From positions 19,178 to 83,177 of the forward strand of contig JAZKCF010000022.1 of assembly GCA_040388195.1 (NCBI GenBank): a DNA stretch of 64,000 nt, in the 5' to 3' direction. A program made the translations under genes and the position numbers. A model generated the notes under the pieces. That model made no database searches, was not told where the DNA came from, and was given only the letters and a program-made list of their open reading frames with translations. The stretch is from Pseudomonadota bacterium (GTDB lineage: Bacteria > Pseudomonadota > Gammaproteobacteria > Burkholderiales > DATLHW01). Of the stretch, positions 1-6,627 are shown piece after piece. The first letter of the stretch is position 1, and each line of letters opens with the position of its first letter.

Positions 1-1461
1 AGGCTGGGAACAATCGCAACCAAGTTGACTGATGGATCACACAACCCTCCAAAAGATGCTGGAAGTGGATTCCCTATGCTCAGCAGTCAAAATGTCAATT
101 TCGGAAATATAGATTTTTCCAACCCCACGCGATATGTCAGCAAGTCAGACTTCCTTATTGAAAATCGGCGCACCAAAATTACCAGTGGCGACGTACTGTT
201 AACAATTGTTGCATCACTAGGTAGGCCTGCTGTTGTGCCAGAAAACGCACCTGATTTTGTCCTTCAACGAAGTGTGGCCGTGATTGGTTCACCAATTGAC
301 TCTGGTTTCTTATGTAAACAGCTTGGTTCCCCCCACTGTGTTAATTATTATTCAACGCATGCAAAAGGTACGGCGCAGCGAGGCATATATCTTGGAAAGT
401 TGGGAGAAATGCTAATACCCCTCCCGCCTCTCCCCGAGCAACATCGCATCGTCGCCAAAATCGATCAACTCATGGTGCGTTGCGACGAGTTGGAAAAACT
501 GCGTGCTGAGCGTGAACAGAGGCGGCGCAGCGTACACATCGCCGCGCTCAAACAGTTACTGGATGCACAAGAACGCAACACTTTCGACGAAGCTTGGCAC
601 TTCATCACCCAGCACTTCGGCGAGCTCTACACCGTCAAAGAAAACGTCACCGAACTACGTAAGGCCATCCTCCGGCTTGCCGTCATGGGCAAACTCGTTC
701 CCCAAGACCCGAACGATCCGGCTGCCAGTGAATTGCTGAAAGAGATTGATGCAGAGAAAAAGCGGCTGGTGAAGGAGGGCAAGATCAAAGTGCCTAAACC
801 GTTGCCGGCGGTCTCGGCGGAAGAAATACGCTATGGTTTGCCAAATGGTTGGGTATGGTCACGCCTTCAGAATGTTTTAGATGTTCGAGATGGTACCCAC
901 GACTCTCCCAAGGATGCTGATGGCACTGACACATATCCATTAATTACAAGTAAGAATTTCGTTAATGGAAAAATCGATTTTACGAATGCAAGAAAAATAT
1001 CTGCCGAAGATCATTTGGAAATTGTCAAACGATCCTGTGTAGACAAGCTCGACATTTTATTTTCCATGATTGGCGGAAATATTGGTAACCAGGTTATTGT
1101 TGAAGAAGATCGTGAATTCAGCATCAAAAATGTCGCGCTCTTCAAGTACTACAACAAAAACTTTACTTACCCATATTTTATTAAGCGGTTCATGGAGCAC
1201 TTGGCAATCGACTTGCAACAAAAAGCTGCTGGAGGCGCTCAACCGTTCATCTCTCTGGGGTTTCTGAGGAATTTGGTTATTGCTCTTCCGCCAAAAACTG
1301 AGCAACACCGTATCGTCGCCAAAATTGATCAGCTCATGAAGCTATGCGACAAGCTTGAACAGGGCATTGAAATTGTCACCGCCAAGCAAACGGAGTTGCT
1401 CAATGCTGTGACGAACCGGAAGGTTAATCGTTTGACCGAAGTCTCGATGGAGTTGGTATGA
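1..1461 (+). CDS. hsdS: Type I restriction-modification specificity subunit HsdS (5' end runs off the window)
   Basis: The frame is open from base 1 (RLGTIATKLTDGSHNPPKD...). There are two target-recognition domains (..DGSHNPPKDA.., ..DGTHDSPKDA..). Each is followed by a near-identical conserved helix (LPEQHRIVAKIDQLMVRCDELEK and KTEQHRIVAKIDQLMKLCDKLEQ), which is the canonical TRD1-CR1-TRD2-CR2 layout. Confidence 0.9.
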   Translation, partial: RLGTIATKLTDGSHNPPKDAGSGFPMLSSQNVNFGNIDFSNPTRYVSKSDFLIENRRTKITSGDVLLTIVASLGRPAVVPENAPDFVLQRSVAVIGSPIDSGFLCKQLGSPHCVNYYSTHAKGTAQRGIYLGKLGEMLIPLPPLPEQHRIVAKIDQLMVRCDELEKLRAEREQRRRSVHIAALKQLLDAQERNTFDEAWHFITQHFGELYTVKENVTELRKAILRLAVMGKLVPQDPNDPAASELLKEIDAEKKRLVKEGKIKVPKPLPAVSAEEIRYGLPNGWVWSRLQNVLDVRDGTHDSPKDADGTDTYPLITSKNFVNGKIDFTNARKISAEDHLEIVKRSCVDKLDILFSMIGGNIGNQVIVEEDREFSIKNVALFKYYNKNFTYPYFIKRFMEHLAIDLQQKAAGGAQPFISLGFLRNLVIALPPKTEQHRIVAKIDQLMKLCDKLEQGIEIVTAKQTELLNAVTNRKVNRLTEVSMELV

Positions 1462-2501
1462 GCGGCATTGAACCTACCGGCGAATTTCTCCTCTACGAAA
1501 CCGAAGATGGGCGTACCCGCGTTGAATGCCGGTTCGTGAGTGACATGCTATGGCTAACACAGAATGGCATGGCCGATCTGTATCAGACTACCAAGCAGAA
1601 CATCGCCAAGCACTTGAAAGCTATCTTCGCTGATGATGAGTTGACGCCAGATTCAGTTGTCAACCAATGGTTGACAACTGCCGCCGATGGTAAGCGCTAC
1701 CAAGTTGGCTTTTACAATCTCGATGCCATCCTTGCCGTCGGCTACCGCGTCCGCTCTACTCGAGGCACGCAATTCCGCCGCTGGGCGACGGAGCGGCTAC
1801 GTGAATATTTGGTCAAGGGTTTCACGCTCGACGACGAGCGGTTGAAGAATCCACCCGTGGCCGGTTCCGGCGTGCCGGATCGATTCGATGAACTGCTGGA
1901 CCGCATTCGCGATATCCGCGCCAGCGAACGGCGGATGTACCTACGAGTGCGCGAGATTTTTGCGATGGCTGCCGATTATTCACCTTCGCTTGCGGAAACG
2001 ACTCAATTCTTCTGCATCATTCAGAACAAATTACATTTCGCCGTTACTGGCAAGACCGCAGCCGAGTTGATTCTGGACCGCGCCGATCACACTCGTCCTA
2101 ACATGGGCCTAACCACATGGAAATCTGCCGGCGTGCAAAAGGCCGACGCGAGCGTTGCAAAGAACTATCTTGCCGACCCGGAAATCAATGAGCTCAATCG
2201 AGTGGTCGTGATGTGGTTGGACTTTGCTGAAGATCAGGCTCGTCGCCGCAAAGAGATATTTCTGAAGGACTGGGAAGAAAAGCTTGATGCTTTCCTCAAG
2301 TTCAATGATCGCAACGTGCTGCCGAATGCAGGCCGTGCCTCCAAGAATCAAGCCGATTCTCACGCAGAGGAGGAATATGCTCAATTTGCTGCCCAACGGC
2401 GTGCGCTACTGGAGGCGGAAGGCGCGGAGCATAATGTGAAAATGCTGGAACAGGCTGCAAAGGCTCTGCCAAAAACAAAGCGAAAAAAAGGGATCGACTG
2501 A
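1458..2501 (+). CDS. RhuM-family protein, translationally coupled to hsdS
   Basis: 347 aa. The N-terminal FLLYETEDGRTRVECRF..LWLTQ..MADLYQTTKQNIAKHLKAIF and the central GYRVRSTRGTQFRRWATERLREYLVKGF match my recollection of the RhuM family. The start overlaps the hsdS stop as ATGA (1458-1461). Confidence 0.75.
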   Translation: MSGIEPTGEFLLYETEDGRTRVECRFVSDMLWLTQNGMADLYQTTKQNIAKHLKAIFADDELTPDSVVNQWLTTAADGKRYQVGFYNLDAILAVGYRVRSTRGTQFRRWATERLREYLVKGFTLDDERLKNPPVAGSGVPDRFDELLDRIRDIRASERRMYLRVREIFAMAADYSPSLAETTQFFCIIQNKLHFAVTGKTAAELILDRADHTRPNMGLTTWKSAGVQKADASVAKNYLADPEINELNRVVVMWLDFAEDQARRRKEIFLKDWEEKLDAFLKFNDRNVLPNAGRASKNQADSHAEEEYAQFAAQRRALLEAEGAEHNVKMLEQAAKALPKTKRKKGID

Positions 2502-2630
2502 TGCCAGTCGATCCACTCTCCGCGAAGATTATTGAACCTTTCATTTACACTGAAAATATTCACATATCATCAGTATTCACCGCTTCAAGACATTGCTAGG
2601 AAAAACCCTTCACTAGCCCACTCACGTTGA

Positions 2631-5444
2631 TTACTGACCAAGCCTCGATACCTGAGACCAAGGCGCAGCAGCATTTCCGTTGTAGTTATAAACATGCGTT
2701 ATTTCACCCACACCCCCTAACGAAACCGTGGTCATATTGTGAAATTTCACACCTGGCGTACGCGGCGCTTCAATCGCATTTTCTAACTTAACGCTCGGGT
2801 TGGAACTGAAGTAACAGTAGATGCCAAGCCCCCATGCTTCATGTGTCGTTACCGAGTTTCCGACTTTATAAGATGCAAATCCGTTAACGCCACCGTTCAT
2901 CCAAGATTGCTGATTTGGCACATCGTAGGGGATTTCACTTTGGTAGAAATAGACGCGTCCGCCGTTGCCATTCCATACAGTTTGATACTGATGATAATGC
3001 TCCACAAATAAGCCGTAGATTGTGACGTTGGTGCCATTCACAATTAATCCGTTCGCTGTTGTGTTGTTGTACCAGCCAACGGTGTCACCAACACCGTGAT
3101 CGGCACGCCAAATCCAGAAGTGGTCGCCAATCGTATTATTGCTATTGATCTTAAGGCTGACAGATGCTTTGCCAACATCACCGCCGCCGATTCTAAAGAA
3201 AATATCGTGAAGCGAAGTGGGGTTCGTCGAGTGATCAGCTGAACTACCTGTTGGGCCAACTTCTAGCAGAATTTGCGAATTTACTCTTCCTGCATCAAAT
3301 AAGAGGCCAGCGATTTTTACGCCATCCACGTCGGCAATCGACATTGCATTTACACCGTTATCCGACACAAGAGTCGCTAAACCGAGGCCAAGCACCACAG
3401 TATTTGCGCGCGTGACGCGAATGGTCTCATTTAAACGATAAACGCCCGGTGCAAATATCAGGTGTTTACCTAAGCGTAGTGCGGAATTGATTGTCGACGC
3501 GGTATCAATTCCTTGTTTGGCGATATAAAACTGGTCAATCGAGATTGATTCACCTGCCGCGCCACCATTTCCCCAGCTAGTGCCTTGCGTATTGGATCTA
3601 AGCGCAGGGACGAAAACGCTATATCCAGTGGCGTTATTAAAAGTAAGAAAAGGCTTCTCACGGATAATCGGTGTTTGGCTTACCACAGTATTTGGGGGAT
3701 TGGGCCATGATGCGCCTGATGGTGCGTTCGTTACACCCAAAAACACCATGTTCCAATTGGAGCCATTCCAATTTCCTATTTGTGAGTTTCTTGTAAACCA
3801 TTGTTGTTGCCCGCCAGAATTAATTTGATTATCAATTTTAGAGTCTGATAAGAAGCCGCCGCTTGACCAGCCCCCATCATCCAGAATCAGATTGCCTCTC
3901 ACATGCATGCGACGAAATGGAGCCGCTTGCGATACAGCCCATCTTTCGGTGCCTCCTGAAGGGATGACCGCCATATTTTCAACGCCACGCCAAAAGTTTT
4001 GCGTTGCGTTCCCGTTAAACCAGCGGGCATCGGCCTGGACAGTACCGTTTATGGTTACGTCGTCCGGCAATTGCCCCAAGCCTAGAACCTGCGTGAAGAA
4101 GCCGACTTTCACTGTGGCATTGTAATAACCGGGTTTGAAAATTAAGGCATACCGGGTGGATGCAAAATGATTGCTTTCTTGTTGACGGAATATGTTGTCA
4201 ACTTTAGTTTGAATCGCTGATGCAGCCATCGATGGATCAAATATCAATACGTTCGGTCCAAAATCGACTGGTATTGGCGCTGTGACTGTAGCTGCAGTCG
4301 GCGTTGGTGTGGATATTTGTGTCGGTGTCGGTGTTGATGTTGATATCGGTGCCGGCGCTGGCGTTACCGATGGCTCTGTTTGAAGCTGCGCGAGCTTTGC
4401 TTGCAATTCCTGCTGCTGTTGCTGCGACTGTAGTAGCTGCGCTTGCAACTGCTGTTGGCTCTGTTTTTGTTCTAGTGTTTGGTTCTGTTGCTGCTGCTGC
4501 AGTGCTTGCTGTTGTTGCTGTGCCAGTTGTAACTGTGTTTGCAATTGCTGTTGGCTCTGCTTTTGTTCTAGCGTTTGATTTTGTTGCTGCTGTTGCACCG
4601 ATTGCAATTGCTGTTGCAGTGCTTGCTGTTGTTGTTGCGACTGTTGTAACTGCGTTTGCAACTGCTGTTGGCTCTGTTTTTGTTCTAGTGTTTGGTTCTG
4701 TTGTTGCTGTTGCAGTGCTTGCTGTTGTTGCTGTGACTGTTGAGTTTGCGCTATCAATTGAGTTTGCGTTTGTATTTGCTGTTGCTGCGATTGTTGTAAC
4801 TGTGCTTGCAACTGCTGTTGGTGTTGTTTCTGTTCTATCGATTGGTTCTGTTGCTGCTGTTGCAGTAGTTGCAGTTGCTGCTGCAATGCTTGCTGTTGTT
4901 GCTGAGCTTGTTGATTTTGTGCTAACAATTGCGCTTGCATTTGTTGTTGCTGTTGCCGCTGTTGTTGGGAAGACGTGTCAGCTGTAGCTGGCGAACTGGA
5001 TGCAGCTTGCGGCGCTGTAAAATTAGCCATGGGGGGCGAAGATATATTACCGCCACCCCCGCTACGTCCACCACCGCCTCCTGATTTGCCAGCGGATGAC
5101 GATGCCGTCGATGCTGACGCTATTGCTGCTCCTGTTCCTGACTTAGTCGTTGCCGCCTTCGGTTCGCTGGGAGGAGTGCACTCACCTAGATCTTTCCACA
5201 TGGTAGAACTGGAGTTAGGGAACCAATTTGTATTGGTAAAAGCGAAGTGTGATTGAAGGGCCTCATAAATATGACCGCGGTAAGTGATAACGCTACCGGC
5301 CGTGTAACCCTTGTCTGTGGTCCAAGTGGTGGGAGTGCAGAGATTAGAGCTTGCGGCATAGGCCATCGAGCCAATCGACAACAACACGGAAAAAGATAAA
5401 GTTCTCATCAAGGCCAGTTGTCTTGCCTTCACTTCTTTTCTCAT
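2631..5444 (-). CDS. Secreted multidomain protein: signal peptide, CBM5/12-like chitin-binding module, Gly/Ser-rich spacer, ~200-aa polyGln repeat block, Pro/Thr linker, C-terminal beta-helix-like (glycosidase/lyase-like) domain
   Basis: 937-aa ORF with an AAGGGA Shine-Dalgarno sequence 6 nt upstream of the ATG at 5444. Signal peptide: ..MRTLSFSVLLSIGSMAYA. CBM5/12-like segment: WTTDKGYTAGSVITYRGHIYEALQSH..WFP..MWKDLG. Q-rich block at aa 160-356. Linker: PAPAPISTSTPTPTQISTPTPT. The C-terminal ~530 aa carries repetitive G/N/V-rich strands (..NGTNVTIYGLFVEHYHQYQTVWNGNGGRVYFYQSE..) typical of right-handed beta-helix enzymes. The exact family is not identified. Confidence 0.75.
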   Translation of the reverse strand: MRKEVKARQLALMRTLSFSVLLSIGSMAYAASSNLCTPTTWTTDKGYTAGSVITYRGHIYEALQSHFAFTNTNWFPNSSSTMWKDLGECTPPSEPKAATTKSGTGAAIASASTASSSAGKSGGGGGRSGGGGNISSPPMANFTAPQAASSSPATADTSSQQQRQQQQQMQAQLLAQNQQAQQQQQALQQQLQLLQQQQQNQSIEQKQHQQQLQAQLQQSQQQQIQTQTQLIAQTQQSQQQQQALQQQQQNQTLEQKQSQQQLQTQLQQSQQQQQALQQQLQSVQQQQQNQTLEQKQSQQQLQTQLQLAQQQQQALQQQQQNQTLEQKQSQQQLQAQLLQSQQQQQELQAKLAQLQTEPSVTPAPAPISTSTPTPTQISTPTPTAATVTAPIPVDFGPNVLIFDPSMAASAIQTKVDNIFRQQESNHFASTRYALIFKPGYYNATVKVGFFTQVLGLGQLPDDVTINGTVQADARWFNGNATQNFWRGVENMAVIPSGGTERWAVSQAAPFRRMHVRGNLILDDGGWSSGGFLSDSKIDNQINSGGQQQWFTRNSQIGNWNGSNWNMVFLGVTNAPSGASWPNPPNTVVSQTPIIREKPFLTFNNATGYSVFVPALRSNTQGTSWGNGGAAGESISIDQFYIAKQGIDTASTINSALRLGKHLIFAPGVYRLNETIRVTRANTVVLGLGLATLVSDNGVNAMSIADVDGVKIAGLLFDAGRVNSQILLEVGPTGSSADHSTNPTSLHDIFFRIGGGDVGKASVSLKINSNNTIGDHFWIWRADHGVGDTVGWYNNTTANGLIVNGTNVTIYGLFVEHYHQYQTVWNGNGGRVYFYQSEIPYDVPNQQSWMNGGVNGFASYKVGNSVTTHEAWGLGIYCYFSSNPSVKLENAIEAPRTPGVKFHNMTTVSLGGVGEITHVYNYNGNAAAPWSQVSRLGQ
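4377..4967 (-). repeat. Imperfect tandem coding repeat (mixed CAA/CAG glutamine codons) inside the 937-aa gene
   Basis: The motif NQ(S/T)(I/L)EQKQ(H/S)QQQLQ(A/T)QL occurs four times, spaced about 32-50 aa apart and embedded in QQQQQALQQQ runs. The plus strand reads as TTG/CTG-rich quasi-repeats. Confidence 0.85.
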
Positions 5445-5799
5445 TATTTATCCCTTATTAAAAATAAGATGGTTAAGCCATCGTTTAGTTATTTTCCCCA
5501 GTCAGTAATTAGCGACTTGCGTTTTTGTGGTTCTTTAGTCGCAATTAGAACAAATGGGAGATTCATACGAAATAAGCAAGTACGATGCCAAAATATAAGT
5601 AAGCGGAGCGTTTATAACGAACTGGATTTAAATAAGAATATTTTTCTCTCTTAATTGAATACAGAGAGCGTCTTACAAAATTGAGAAATACAGGAAGTAA
5701 AAAATTGCAGAAATGAAAAAAATGATTTGTTACGAAATGCCTCCAACCGGCTATTGAGTAAATCATCAAAGGCCGTTTTGTGATGCCGTTAATTTTTTA

Positions 5800-6627
5800 T
5801 TAAATATTAAGAAGTGCTCTCATTTGTTGAGGATAGTCAGTAATGATTGTAGTAATACCGCTGTTTAATAATTGCCTGGTTAATGCTTCACGTTCTTGTG
5901 GATTAAGACGATCCGGATTTTTTTCCTGACAGGTCCATGCGACGGGCTTTGCACCCGCCGTGCGTATCATGTTGATCGTGACTTGTGTCAATGAAGGCAA
6001 ACTGAGATTGACGGTTTGTGGGTGCAAATCGTCAATGGTGGTAAGTTTCTGAGCAAGCTGTTGTTCGGTAACACACCACGGTTCTTTATCGCTCCAGAAT
6101 AAAGCGCCAAGAGGCGTTTCGGCGCGAAGTTTTTTTATCTCTCGGAGATTATCAATATCTCCAGCGCTGACTTGAAAATTGGTTGGCGACCAACCGTTGT
6201 TTAAGCGGTTTTGAATTGCTTCTGCAACTTGTTGATTAAGTCGAGCGCCTTTGATTTCAATATTCACAACAAAATCTTTTGCGCGTATTTCTTCTGGATT
6301 TTGCTGACGGAAATCGCCTACTAGATTCAGCACTTCTTCCAGTGTAGGAATCAGCGATTGGGTAAGTATCCCTTTGGTGTCCTTTAGCTGTAATCGCTTA
6401 AGTTCAGCTAAGGTAAATGTGGTGATATCGCCAGTGCCATTGGTCATGCGTTCCAGTGTGTCATCGTGGAACACAACCAACTGCGTATCCTTAGTCAGAA
6501 AAACATCGAGCTCTACGCCATCGGCGCCTTGATCGATCGCGGCTTGAAAGGCGTCAAGTGAATTTTCTGGCGGATTATCATCTCCCCGGCAACCGCGATG
6601 CCCCCAAATTTTAATCGTCTGGTTCAT
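5800..6627 (-). CDS. Glycerophosphodiester phosphodiesterase (GDPD family)
   Basis: 275 aa. GDPD signature: IWGHRGCRG..PENSLDAFQAAIDQGADGVELDVFLTKDTQLVVFHDDTLERMTNGTG. The ATG immediately follows the gltD stop (TAAATG). Confidence 0.85.
   Translation of the reverse strand: MNQTIKIWGHRGCRGDDNPPENSLDAFQAAIDQGADGVELDVFLTKDTQLVVFHDDTLERMTNGTGDITTFTLAELKRLQLKDTKGILTQSLIPTLEEVLNLVGDFRQQNPEEIRAKDFVVNIEIKGARLNQQVAEAIQNRLNNGWSPTNFQVSAGDIDNLREIKKLRAETPLGALFWSDKEPWCVTEQQLAQKLTTIDDLHPQTVNLSLPSLTQVTINMIRTAGAKPVAWTCQEKNPDRLNPQEREALTRQLLNSGITTIITDYPQQMRALLNI

Follow-up and report, generated by a model that had tools for sequence, protein, structure and literature searches.

The stretch of DNA considered here (the window) comprises 64,000 nucleotides of contig JAZKCF010000022.1 from a bacterium assigned to the Burkholderiales. 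On the minus strand of the window, which carries all of the gene's features given below, an open reading frame (ORF) at 2631..5444 encodes a protein of 937 amino acids (aa) plus a stop codon. The product is predicted to consist of a signal peptide, a carbohydrate-binding module of family 5/12 (CBM5/12), a Gly/Ser spacer, a Gln/Leu-rich block (the Q block), a Pro/Thr linker and a catalytic domain of glycoside hydrolase family 55 (GH55). A first-pass annotation of the DNA had proposed such an order of parts, and each part that it listed was verified in the 937-aa frame. The signal peptide and CBM5/12 are in frame with the rest of the coding sequence, and the architecture is common to paralogues. 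A Shine-Dalgarno element that can be read directly from the sequence (AAGGGA; 5451..5456) lies 6 nt 5' of the ATG codon at 5444-5442, and a terminator-like hairpin followed by a T-run is located 117 nt past the stop codon (2491..2514).

The signal peptide (aa 1-30; 5355..5444) has a Lys/Arg-rich n-region, the hydrophobic stretch LSFSVLLSIG and a predicted cleavage site at AYA|AS. This N-terminus is kept in the paralogues and in an orthologue described below. No lipobox precedes Cys36, and anchoring as a lipoprotein was therefore rejected. The CBM5/12 is a chitin-binding-type module (aa 40-84; 5193..5327) that sits between two invariant cysteines, Cys36 and Cys89. What had earlier been noted as a CBM5/12-like segment matches Pfam PF02839 over profile positions 1-44 of 44, with an E-value of 3.2e-9 and a score of 37.1 bits against a cut-off of 26.2. 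This module is the sole match for the whole protein in a scan of a Pfam and NCBIfam library that does not include the GH55 model PF27525. Matches to Hamartin, PolC and PetG profiles were set aside as composition noise. Downstream of Cys89, a flexible spacer of 67 residues rich in Gly, Ser and Ala (aa 90-156; 4977..5177) carries conserved GGGGGRSGGG and NFT.PQ motifs. It is the least conserved segment of the protein and is modelled with predicted local distance difference test (pLDDT) values below 50.

The C-terminal domain (aa 394-937; 2634..4265) had been described as a beta-helix-like enzyme domain without a family, and this description can be made specific. In a phmmer search of PDB sequences, aa 394-926 align to residues 19-546 of SacteLam55A (4PEW) with an E-value of 1.1e-201 and 57% identity over 525 aligned residues. 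An AlphaFold2 (AF2) model calculated with an alignment of homologues has pLDDT values above 90 across the domain, which is composed of two tandem beta-helix domains. Comparison of this model with 4PEX/4PEW by Foldseek gives a template modelling (TM) score of 0.96 and a root-mean-square deviation of 1.4 A. Homologues of the domain carry Pfam PF27525.

The functional residues of SacteLam55A and their roles are listed in PMC10637969. When they are mapped onto this protein, 15 of the 16 are conserved, and for 13 of those 15 an alignment of 42 homologues shows complete or at least 90% conservation. The general acid Glu502 corresponds to Glu837 (codon 2934-2936) and the orienting Tyr505 to Tyr840, both of which are invariant among the 42 homologues. 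The proton relay that activates the nucleophilic water (Thr149/Gln174/Ser198/Glu480) is represented by Thr481/Gln506/Ser528/Glu815. Residues of the dead-end subsite -1 (Trp446/Asp449/His481) become Trp779/Asp782/His816, those of the aromatic block (Phe152/Trp444/Trp446) become Phe484/Trp777/Trp779, and Trp196 becomes Trp526. Conservation extends to Trp475, Phe476 and Gln482, the residues by which subsite -2 is filled in the bacterial exo-enzyme. The sole mismatch is Tyr194, which contributes to the distal subsite +5 and is not conserved in the family; it is replaced by Gly. The strength of the database match, the conserved catalytic residues and the matching fold together support assignment of this domain as a GH55 exo-beta-1,3-glucanase, with the activity predicted from homology and modelling. 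The secreted enzyme itself is ordinary, in that a beta-1,3-glucan-digesting GH55 domain is combined with a chitin-binding module.

Between these familiar modules lies the Q block (aa 157-354; 4383..4976). It is followed by a 39-residue Pro/Thr/Ser linker (aa 355-393; 4266..4382) of a type that also precedes GH55 domains in homologues such as P0003 and P0037. The 198 residues of the block include no Pro and no Gly, even though its flanks are Gly-rich or Pro-rich, and its charged residues are five Lys, one Arg and five Glu. A block of about 197 residues with well over half Gln and with recurring Leu had been reported at aa 160-356, and the count bears this out: 117 of the 197 residues are Gln (59%), 27 are Leu (14%) and 13 are Ala. 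The term 'polyglutamine' that was applied to it is apt for the composition but not in its strict sense, since the longest Gln run is 5 and the codons are mixed (CAA:CAG 69:48, with a longest same-codon run of 3). In a six-frame scan of the genome, only three open segments reach at least 50% Gln per 60-aa window, and two of these are the gene studied here and its paralogue. The composition of the block is far beyond chance. A Gln/Ala/Gly-rich open frame of ~320 aa with QQALQQ-type repeats is also present on contig C61 (68330-69307, minus strand); it has no evident signal peptide and is unrelated to the cassette formed by the signal peptide and CBM5/12.

The Q block is internally repetitive, with periods of 96, 117 and 150 nt according to Tandem Repeats Finder. 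Four units can be anchored on the motif NQ[ST][IL]EQKQxQQQLQxQL at aa 200, 250, 289 and 321 (4798-4847, 4648-4697, 4531-4580 and 4435-4484, respectively). Unit lengths are 50, 39 and 32 aa, and the units are 84-88% identical to each other in DNA sequence. Exact internal repeats reach at most 48 bp, and outside the block the genome has no exact match longer than 19 bp. From these alignments, the block appears to have arisen by tandem duplication of a 32-50-aa unit that is present once in a paralogous cassette.

This paralogue is encoded on contig C140 of the same genome (6092-6856, plus strand). It consists of a signal peptide, a CBM5/12, a Gly/Ser spacer, a one-unit Q block of ~70 aa and then (TP)n, and the contig ends within a perfect (CCGACC)n Thr-Pro repeat. 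A search of the assembly for its catalytic part found no contig end with (CCGACC)n or a P/T-rich open frame. The first 60 residues of its Q block align without gaps to the window gene. A second relative is found on the metagenome contig Ga0070687_100004405 (hereafter L021), which was recovered by a cassette-alignment scan and represents a syntenic orthologue. Its order is gltD, a 1.5-kb extra segment, a GDPD gene and then signal peptide, CBM5/12, Gly/Ser spacer and Q block, with the contig ending inside the block. The gltD genes of the two organisms are 95% identical in amino acid and 86% in nucleotide sequence. At the amino acid level, the window gene and L021 share 79% identity in the Q block, followed by 75% in the CBM, 63% in the signal peptide and 52% in the Gly/Ser spacer. 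The positions of non-Gln residues are kept in all three genes.

Codon comparisons indicate what is being conserved. Between the window gene and the C140 paralogue, 67 codons of the Q block divide into 30 that are identical, 22 with synonymous and 15 with non-synonymous differences. The corresponding numbers are 20, 22 and 18 for 60 codons of the CBM, and 10, 20 and 30 for 60 codons of the spacer. Among the internal units of the block, synonymous differences equal or exceed non-synonymous differences in four of six pairwise comparisons. Only one of the nine possible single-base changes in a Gln codon is silent. An excess of synonymous differences despite this handicap points to purifying selection on the amino acid sequence of the Q block, which on these alignments appears to be real coding sequence under constraint. 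Its conservation in both a paralogue and an orthologue argues against an assembly artefact, and also against a neutral spacer in which only composition matters.

Each repeat unit contains one Asn, which always occurs in the context N-x-[ST]. The triplets are NQS or NQT in the window gene, NQT in the C140 paralogue and NKT in L021, and the spacer contains NIS and NFT as well (aa 133 and 141). These sites could be glycosylation sequons, or they could serve as helix N-caps or hinges. The genome has two ORFs of the GT41 family (contig C28, 7873-9000; contig C35, 6309-7322), and no STT3/PglB was found in it. A gene content with GT41 only is not diagnostic.

No further relative of the Q block came to light in the searches made. 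A word-indexed protein search with aa 150-372 gave no match at E <= 1e-3. When 1.84 billion cluster representatives were searched exhaustively by HMMER with aa 31-395 as the query, 97 matches were returned, essentially all of which are due to the CBM, and none of the 97 is a credible match to the Q block. P0193 reaches marginally into the linker or Q region. P0143, P0201 and P0212, which also reach it marginally, were rejected as unrelated low-complexity or coiled-coil proteins. A degenerate DNA pattern representing the repeat core has four matches in the window and none in 241 million metagenome records. When genome contigs were searched with a profile of the cassette alignment, in a collection from which records of the window's own genome may be missing, only an unrelated Albimonas match was obtained. 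GH55 homologues number in the thousands, and the best matches (68-78% identity) are from metagenomes, Rhodocyclales, Collimonas, Lysobacter, Ideonella and Paraburkholderia. Query coverage is 74% or less among the 120 best GH55 matches, and in no case does it include the Q block. The first-pass annotation had considered that the same block might be common among orthologues, and it is seen only in the paralogue and L021. The Q-block sequence thus appears, from these searches, to be confined to one narrow lineage.

Gln-rich sequence as such is a different matter. Q-rich biased regions have been counted in 16,586 of 1.86e7 bacterial proteins, or ~0.09% (Harrison 2019, PMC6400439). The statement that long Q-rich tracts are rare in bacteria is therefore correct in that they are uncommon, but the count does not make them extraordinary.

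The structure of the Q block is predicted to be alpha-helical. When AF2 is given the single sequence of aa 31-400, the best model has one unbroken helix from aa 157 to 354 with pLDDT values of 75-90. The full-length run with an alignment yields helices at aa 158-249, 258-286 and 294-354. Helix is thus the consistent prediction across the AF2 runs, whereas its continuity is not. A block free of Pro and Gly, set between Gly-rich and Pro-rich flanks, also supports a helical core between two hinges. On the basis of both prediction and composition, we infer that the Q block is alpha-helical.

Precedent exists for helices of this composition. Monomeric, uncharged Gln/Leu helices can be stabilised by hydrogen bonds from the side chain of Gln(i+4) to the backbone of Leu(i) (PMC6497633, PMC9674830). 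In the Q block, Gln occupies position i+4 for 18 of the 29 good acceptor residues. A similar mode of action is conceivable for the block, although it lacks the defining motif of these Gln-stabilised helices.

These observations lead us to favour, with some confidence, a reading in which the protein is a secreted GH55 glucanase with a CBM5/12 chitin anchor and a stiff helical Gln/Leu spacer between hinges. As judged from its N-terminal sequence, the protein would be exported by the Sec pathway and cleaved after AYA. The CBM5/12 would dock it on chitin, as is typical for members of this family. Given its conserved catalytic machinery, the GH55 domain very probably cleaves glucose off the non-reducing ends of beta-1,3-glucan such as laminarin or fungal wall glucan. 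The tether between anchor and enzyme would comprise a flexible 67-aa Gly/Ser hinge, the uncharged helical Gln/Leu block of 198 residues and a 39-aa Pro/Thr hinge. If the helix were continuous, it would form a rod of ~30 nm (29.7 nm by calculation). The helical block may then act as a stiff, soluble spacer that sets the distance of the enzyme from its chitin anchor at tens of nanometres, and such spacing would suit the layered chitin-glucan wall of fungi.

Several points weigh against this reading. Four of the five single-sequence models have low mean pLDDT values (46-51), and in the full-length AF2 run the helix is interrupted at two NQT sites, where pLDDT falls to 41-48. AlphaFold tends to draw helices for low-complexity sequences rich in Gln and Leu. 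Most GH55 homologues manage with short Pro/Thr linkers, and we know of no experimental link between linker stiffness and GH55 function. Only three instances of the block are known, and all belong to one narrow lineage. The number of Leu residues with Gln at i+4 is the number expected from composition (18 observed, 17.8 expected). The concatenated design motif [LFYWIM]-x-x-[LFYWIM]-Q-... of Escobedo et al. 2022 has one match with n=2 (aa 191) and none with n>=3 in the block.

A stronger version of the stiff-spacer reading can be put forward only tentatively. Here, the block would be a naturally occurring single alpha-helix (or polar coiled coil) of uncharged Gln/Leu sequence, ~30 nm long, that serves as an extracellular rigid 'measuring rod' between the chitin anchor and the glucanase. 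If this version is true, the block would represent a new structural class of linker in carbohydrate-active enzymes and the longest natural glutamine-stabilised helix. The common N-terminal cassette would, moreover, make it a portable module that enzymes share. A stiff rod would imply that the geometry of a linker, and not its length alone, is selected in enzymes that act on insoluble composites such as the chitin-glucan wall. It would in addition provide a natural, uncharged and soluble long-helix scaffold akin to recent polyglutamine-helix designs.

Alternatively, the Gln/Leu block might be an oligomerisation domain, in which a polar, Gln-rich, stuttered coiled coil (dimer or trimer) raises the avidity of the weakly binding CBM5/12 and clusters the catalytic domains. 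We regard this as unlikely, although it accounts for several features of the sequence. There is a weak hydrophobic periodicity at 3.55 residues (R = 0.40), whose band maximum is reached by 66 of 2000 shuffles. With 3.55 residues per turn, units of 32, 39 and 50 aa make 9.0, 11.0 and 14.1 turns, as in mixtures of heptads and hendecads, and the Leu seam stays in phase from unit to unit. By calculation, five of the six hydrophobic residues per unit fall within an arc of ~76 degrees, and an a/d pattern is matched locally in two windows of 28 residues (aa 258-285 and 328-355). However, no signal is present at 3.5 or 7.0 residues (values reached by 1312 and 1478 of 2000 shuffles), so heptad periodicity over the block is no better than in shuffled sequences, and the strongest periodicity, at 4.44, is non-helical. 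Any such shuffle test is inflated by tandem repetition. Hydrophobic residues fill only ~45% of the presumptive core positions, and the signal vanishes when Ala is counted as hydrophobic (1840 of 2000 shuffles reach it). A coiled-coil stalk was among the roles first suggested for the block. Its classical form is not supported, given this lack of a heptad signal, while a stuttered polar coiled coil is possible. The broader idea of a stalk or tether fits the helices of the two AF2 runs.

A self-associating spacer was suggested as well. In a fuller form, it would be a disordered segment of the 'prion-like' or gel-forming kind that forms amyloid or phase-separates and so concentrates the enzyme on surfaces or in a matrix. 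The Gln content of 59% and the near lack of charge would fit such a segment, and Q-rich regions are the commonest N/Q-biased class in surveys of bacterial prion-like sequences (PMC6400439). Nevertheless, this role is improbable. The tract is too interrupted for amyloid of the polyglutamine type, with Gln runs of at most 5 and with 14% Leu at conserved positions, and both AF2 runs predict helix. Its position-specific conservation is at the level of a folded domain, which is atypical of selection on composition only.

Still less probable is a hypermutable, length-variable tether, comparable to contingency repeats, in which copy number matters and sequence does not. An array of tandem units (periods 96, 117 and 150 nt), one unit in the paralogue where the window gene has four, and an L021 contig that ends inside the block are all features that such a tether might display. 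Slippage-type variation in length is unlikely, however, because CAA and CAG are mixed, with same-codon runs of at most 3, and because the units are only 84-88% identical, with 48 bp as their longest exact repeat. The block is thus not the perfect, slippage-prone short repeat that defines simple-sequence contingency loci, and its excess of synonymous differences implies that the sequence itself is selected.

The public annotation of this locus differs from the gene model used here. The public gene call, P0002 (591 aa), begins at a TTG codon at aa 347, so that signal peptide, CBM5/12 and Q block are left out. This start is probably an annotation error due to the odd composition of the upstream sequence, and the truncated annotation loses both the export signal and the chitin-binding module. 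No contig records that encode the P0002 gene model are on record. The proposal that the 591-aa call is the true product and that the Q-rich frame upstream is untranslated or an assembly artefact can scarcely be entertained: besides the TTG start of the public call, it can draw on the several open frames of CAA/CAG-rich DNA, among them an antisense ORF of 227 aa at 4304-4987, but it would leave the GH55 enzyme with no signal peptide, which makes no biological sense for a secreted GH55, while the upstream frame has an in-phase signal peptide, a CBM5/12 above the Pfam cut-off and a good ribosome binding site, the order of signal peptide, CBM, Q block and Pro/Thr linker recurs in the paralogue and in an independently assembled orthologue, and the contig spans a block with no exact repeat longer than 48 bp.

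The gene resides in a draft genome of 4.92 Mb (164 contigs, 48.9% GC). Its gltD sequence places the organism in a sparsely sampled betaproteobacterial family, with Usitatibacter and 'Burkholderiales bacterium' as the nearest named relatives at ~77%. Comparison within the genus involves one other genome, G001, which is 86% complete. In G001, a tim44-like gene and gltD are ~100 bp apart and are followed by hemE, priA and argS. In the genome studied here, the tim44-like gene and gltD are separated by an insertion of 12.5 kb that is absent in G001. The insertion contains hsdR, hsdM (as two ORFs), a Schlafen/AlbA_2-ATPase gene, hsdS, RhuM, the GH55 gene and the GDPD gene. GH55 is found neither in G001 nor in representatives of 39 other families of the order. 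Since the insertion is lacking in G001, the GH55 gene is accessory, as the first-pass annotation had expected.

The neighbouring genes were earlier described as a restriction-modification fragment. This proves not to be the case in that the gene content is that of a full type I system, with hsdR and hsdM just outside the window. The hsdR gene is located at 623-3067 of locus L020 (G000:C22:13000-19400), just upstream of the window start. It is followed on L020 by hsdM in the form of two overlapping ORFs (3096-4013 and 3899-4558), and this split suggests a frameshift or a sequencing error. A gene with Schlafen/AlbA_2, HATPase_c_4 and HTH (helix-turn-helix) domains (4558-5904) lies between hsdM and hsdS. 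The GDPD gene (window positions 5800-6627) comes after gltD and is absent in G001, where hemE and the tim44-like gene adjoin gltD. It is present in L021 (in the region 1384-2850), with an extra ~1.5 kb between gltD and GDPD.

The signal peptide and CBM5/12 cassette, with its two bracketing cysteines, heads four further proteins in the genome. These are a GH19 chitinase, a GH114 enzyme, a GH18-like protein and the fragment on contig C140. The GH18-like protein, which has a TQ/TP-rich linker, is encoded on C143 (23254-24810, minus strand), the GH19 enzyme on C123 (37789-38847, plus strand) and the GH114 enzyme on C138 (439-1845, plus strand). The cassette proteins constitute a toolkit directed at chitin and fungal walls, and together with GH55 they suggest a fungal-wall-degrading lifestyle. 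The host is a poorly sampled soil or rhizosphere betaproteobacterium equipped with enzymes that attack fungal walls. A GH19 chitinase of G001 (contig C436; L007, 109-2055, minus strand) has a Ser/Thr-rich linker of ~350 aa between its CBM5/12 and catalytic domain. In this genus, low-complexity linkers of great length seem to be habitual.

Among characterised enzymes, the closest counterpart is SacteLam55A from Streptomyces sp. SirexAA-E (4PEW, 4PEX and 4TZ1). This bacterial GH55 has the same catalytic, subsite -1 and aromatic residues, as well as the residues that close subsite -2 and mark an exo-acting enzyme. The crystallised SacteLam55A chains that were matched consist of the catalytic domain only, whereas the present protein adds an N-terminal CBM5/12 and the Gln/Leu block. 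Proteobacterial GH55 enzymes (P0003-P0037) are likewise secreted and modular, with CBM6, ricin or CBM5/12 partners and a Pro/Thr linker directly before the PDFGPNV start of the catalytic domain. One of them, P0037, shares an N-terminal CBM5/12 with the present enzyme. All of these homologues join their modules through short Pro/Thr linkers only, and none has a Q block.

The linkers of carbohydrate-active enzymes are nearly always rich in Pro, Thr, Ser or Gly, flexible and fast-evolving. Poly-Ser, Pro/Thr and Ser/Thr linkers are rich in Pro, Ser and Thr, extended or disordered, and poorly conserved, and the Gln/Leu block differs from them in all of these respects. The Ser/Thr-rich linker of the G001 GH19 chitinase resembles the block in its position between CBM5/12 and catalytic domain and in its presumed role as a tether.

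Amide-rich linkers do have a precedent. Asn/Gln-rich linkers have long been known in xylanases of Ruminococcus flavefaciens (ORF03896, PMC2721979; XynA, Zhang & Flint 1992 cited there). Like the Q block, they are long, low-complexity segments that join the modules of secreted glycoside hydrolases. However, they belong to a Gram-positive, cellulosome-type system and have no detected sequence relation to the Q block. Their composition is dominated by Asn rather than Gln, and they are not known to have a Leu pattern. The xylanase linkers are regarded as flexible, not helical.

In composition, the Gln/Leu block resembles the uncharged, monomeric Gln/Leu helices formed by the L4Qn tract of the androgen receptor and by designed (P3-7)n peptides. 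Those examples span 16-30 residues and are intracellular or synthetic, whereas the block has 198 residues and would be extracellular. What is found at this locus is a well-understood type of enzyme joined to a conserved linker of a previously undescribed kind.

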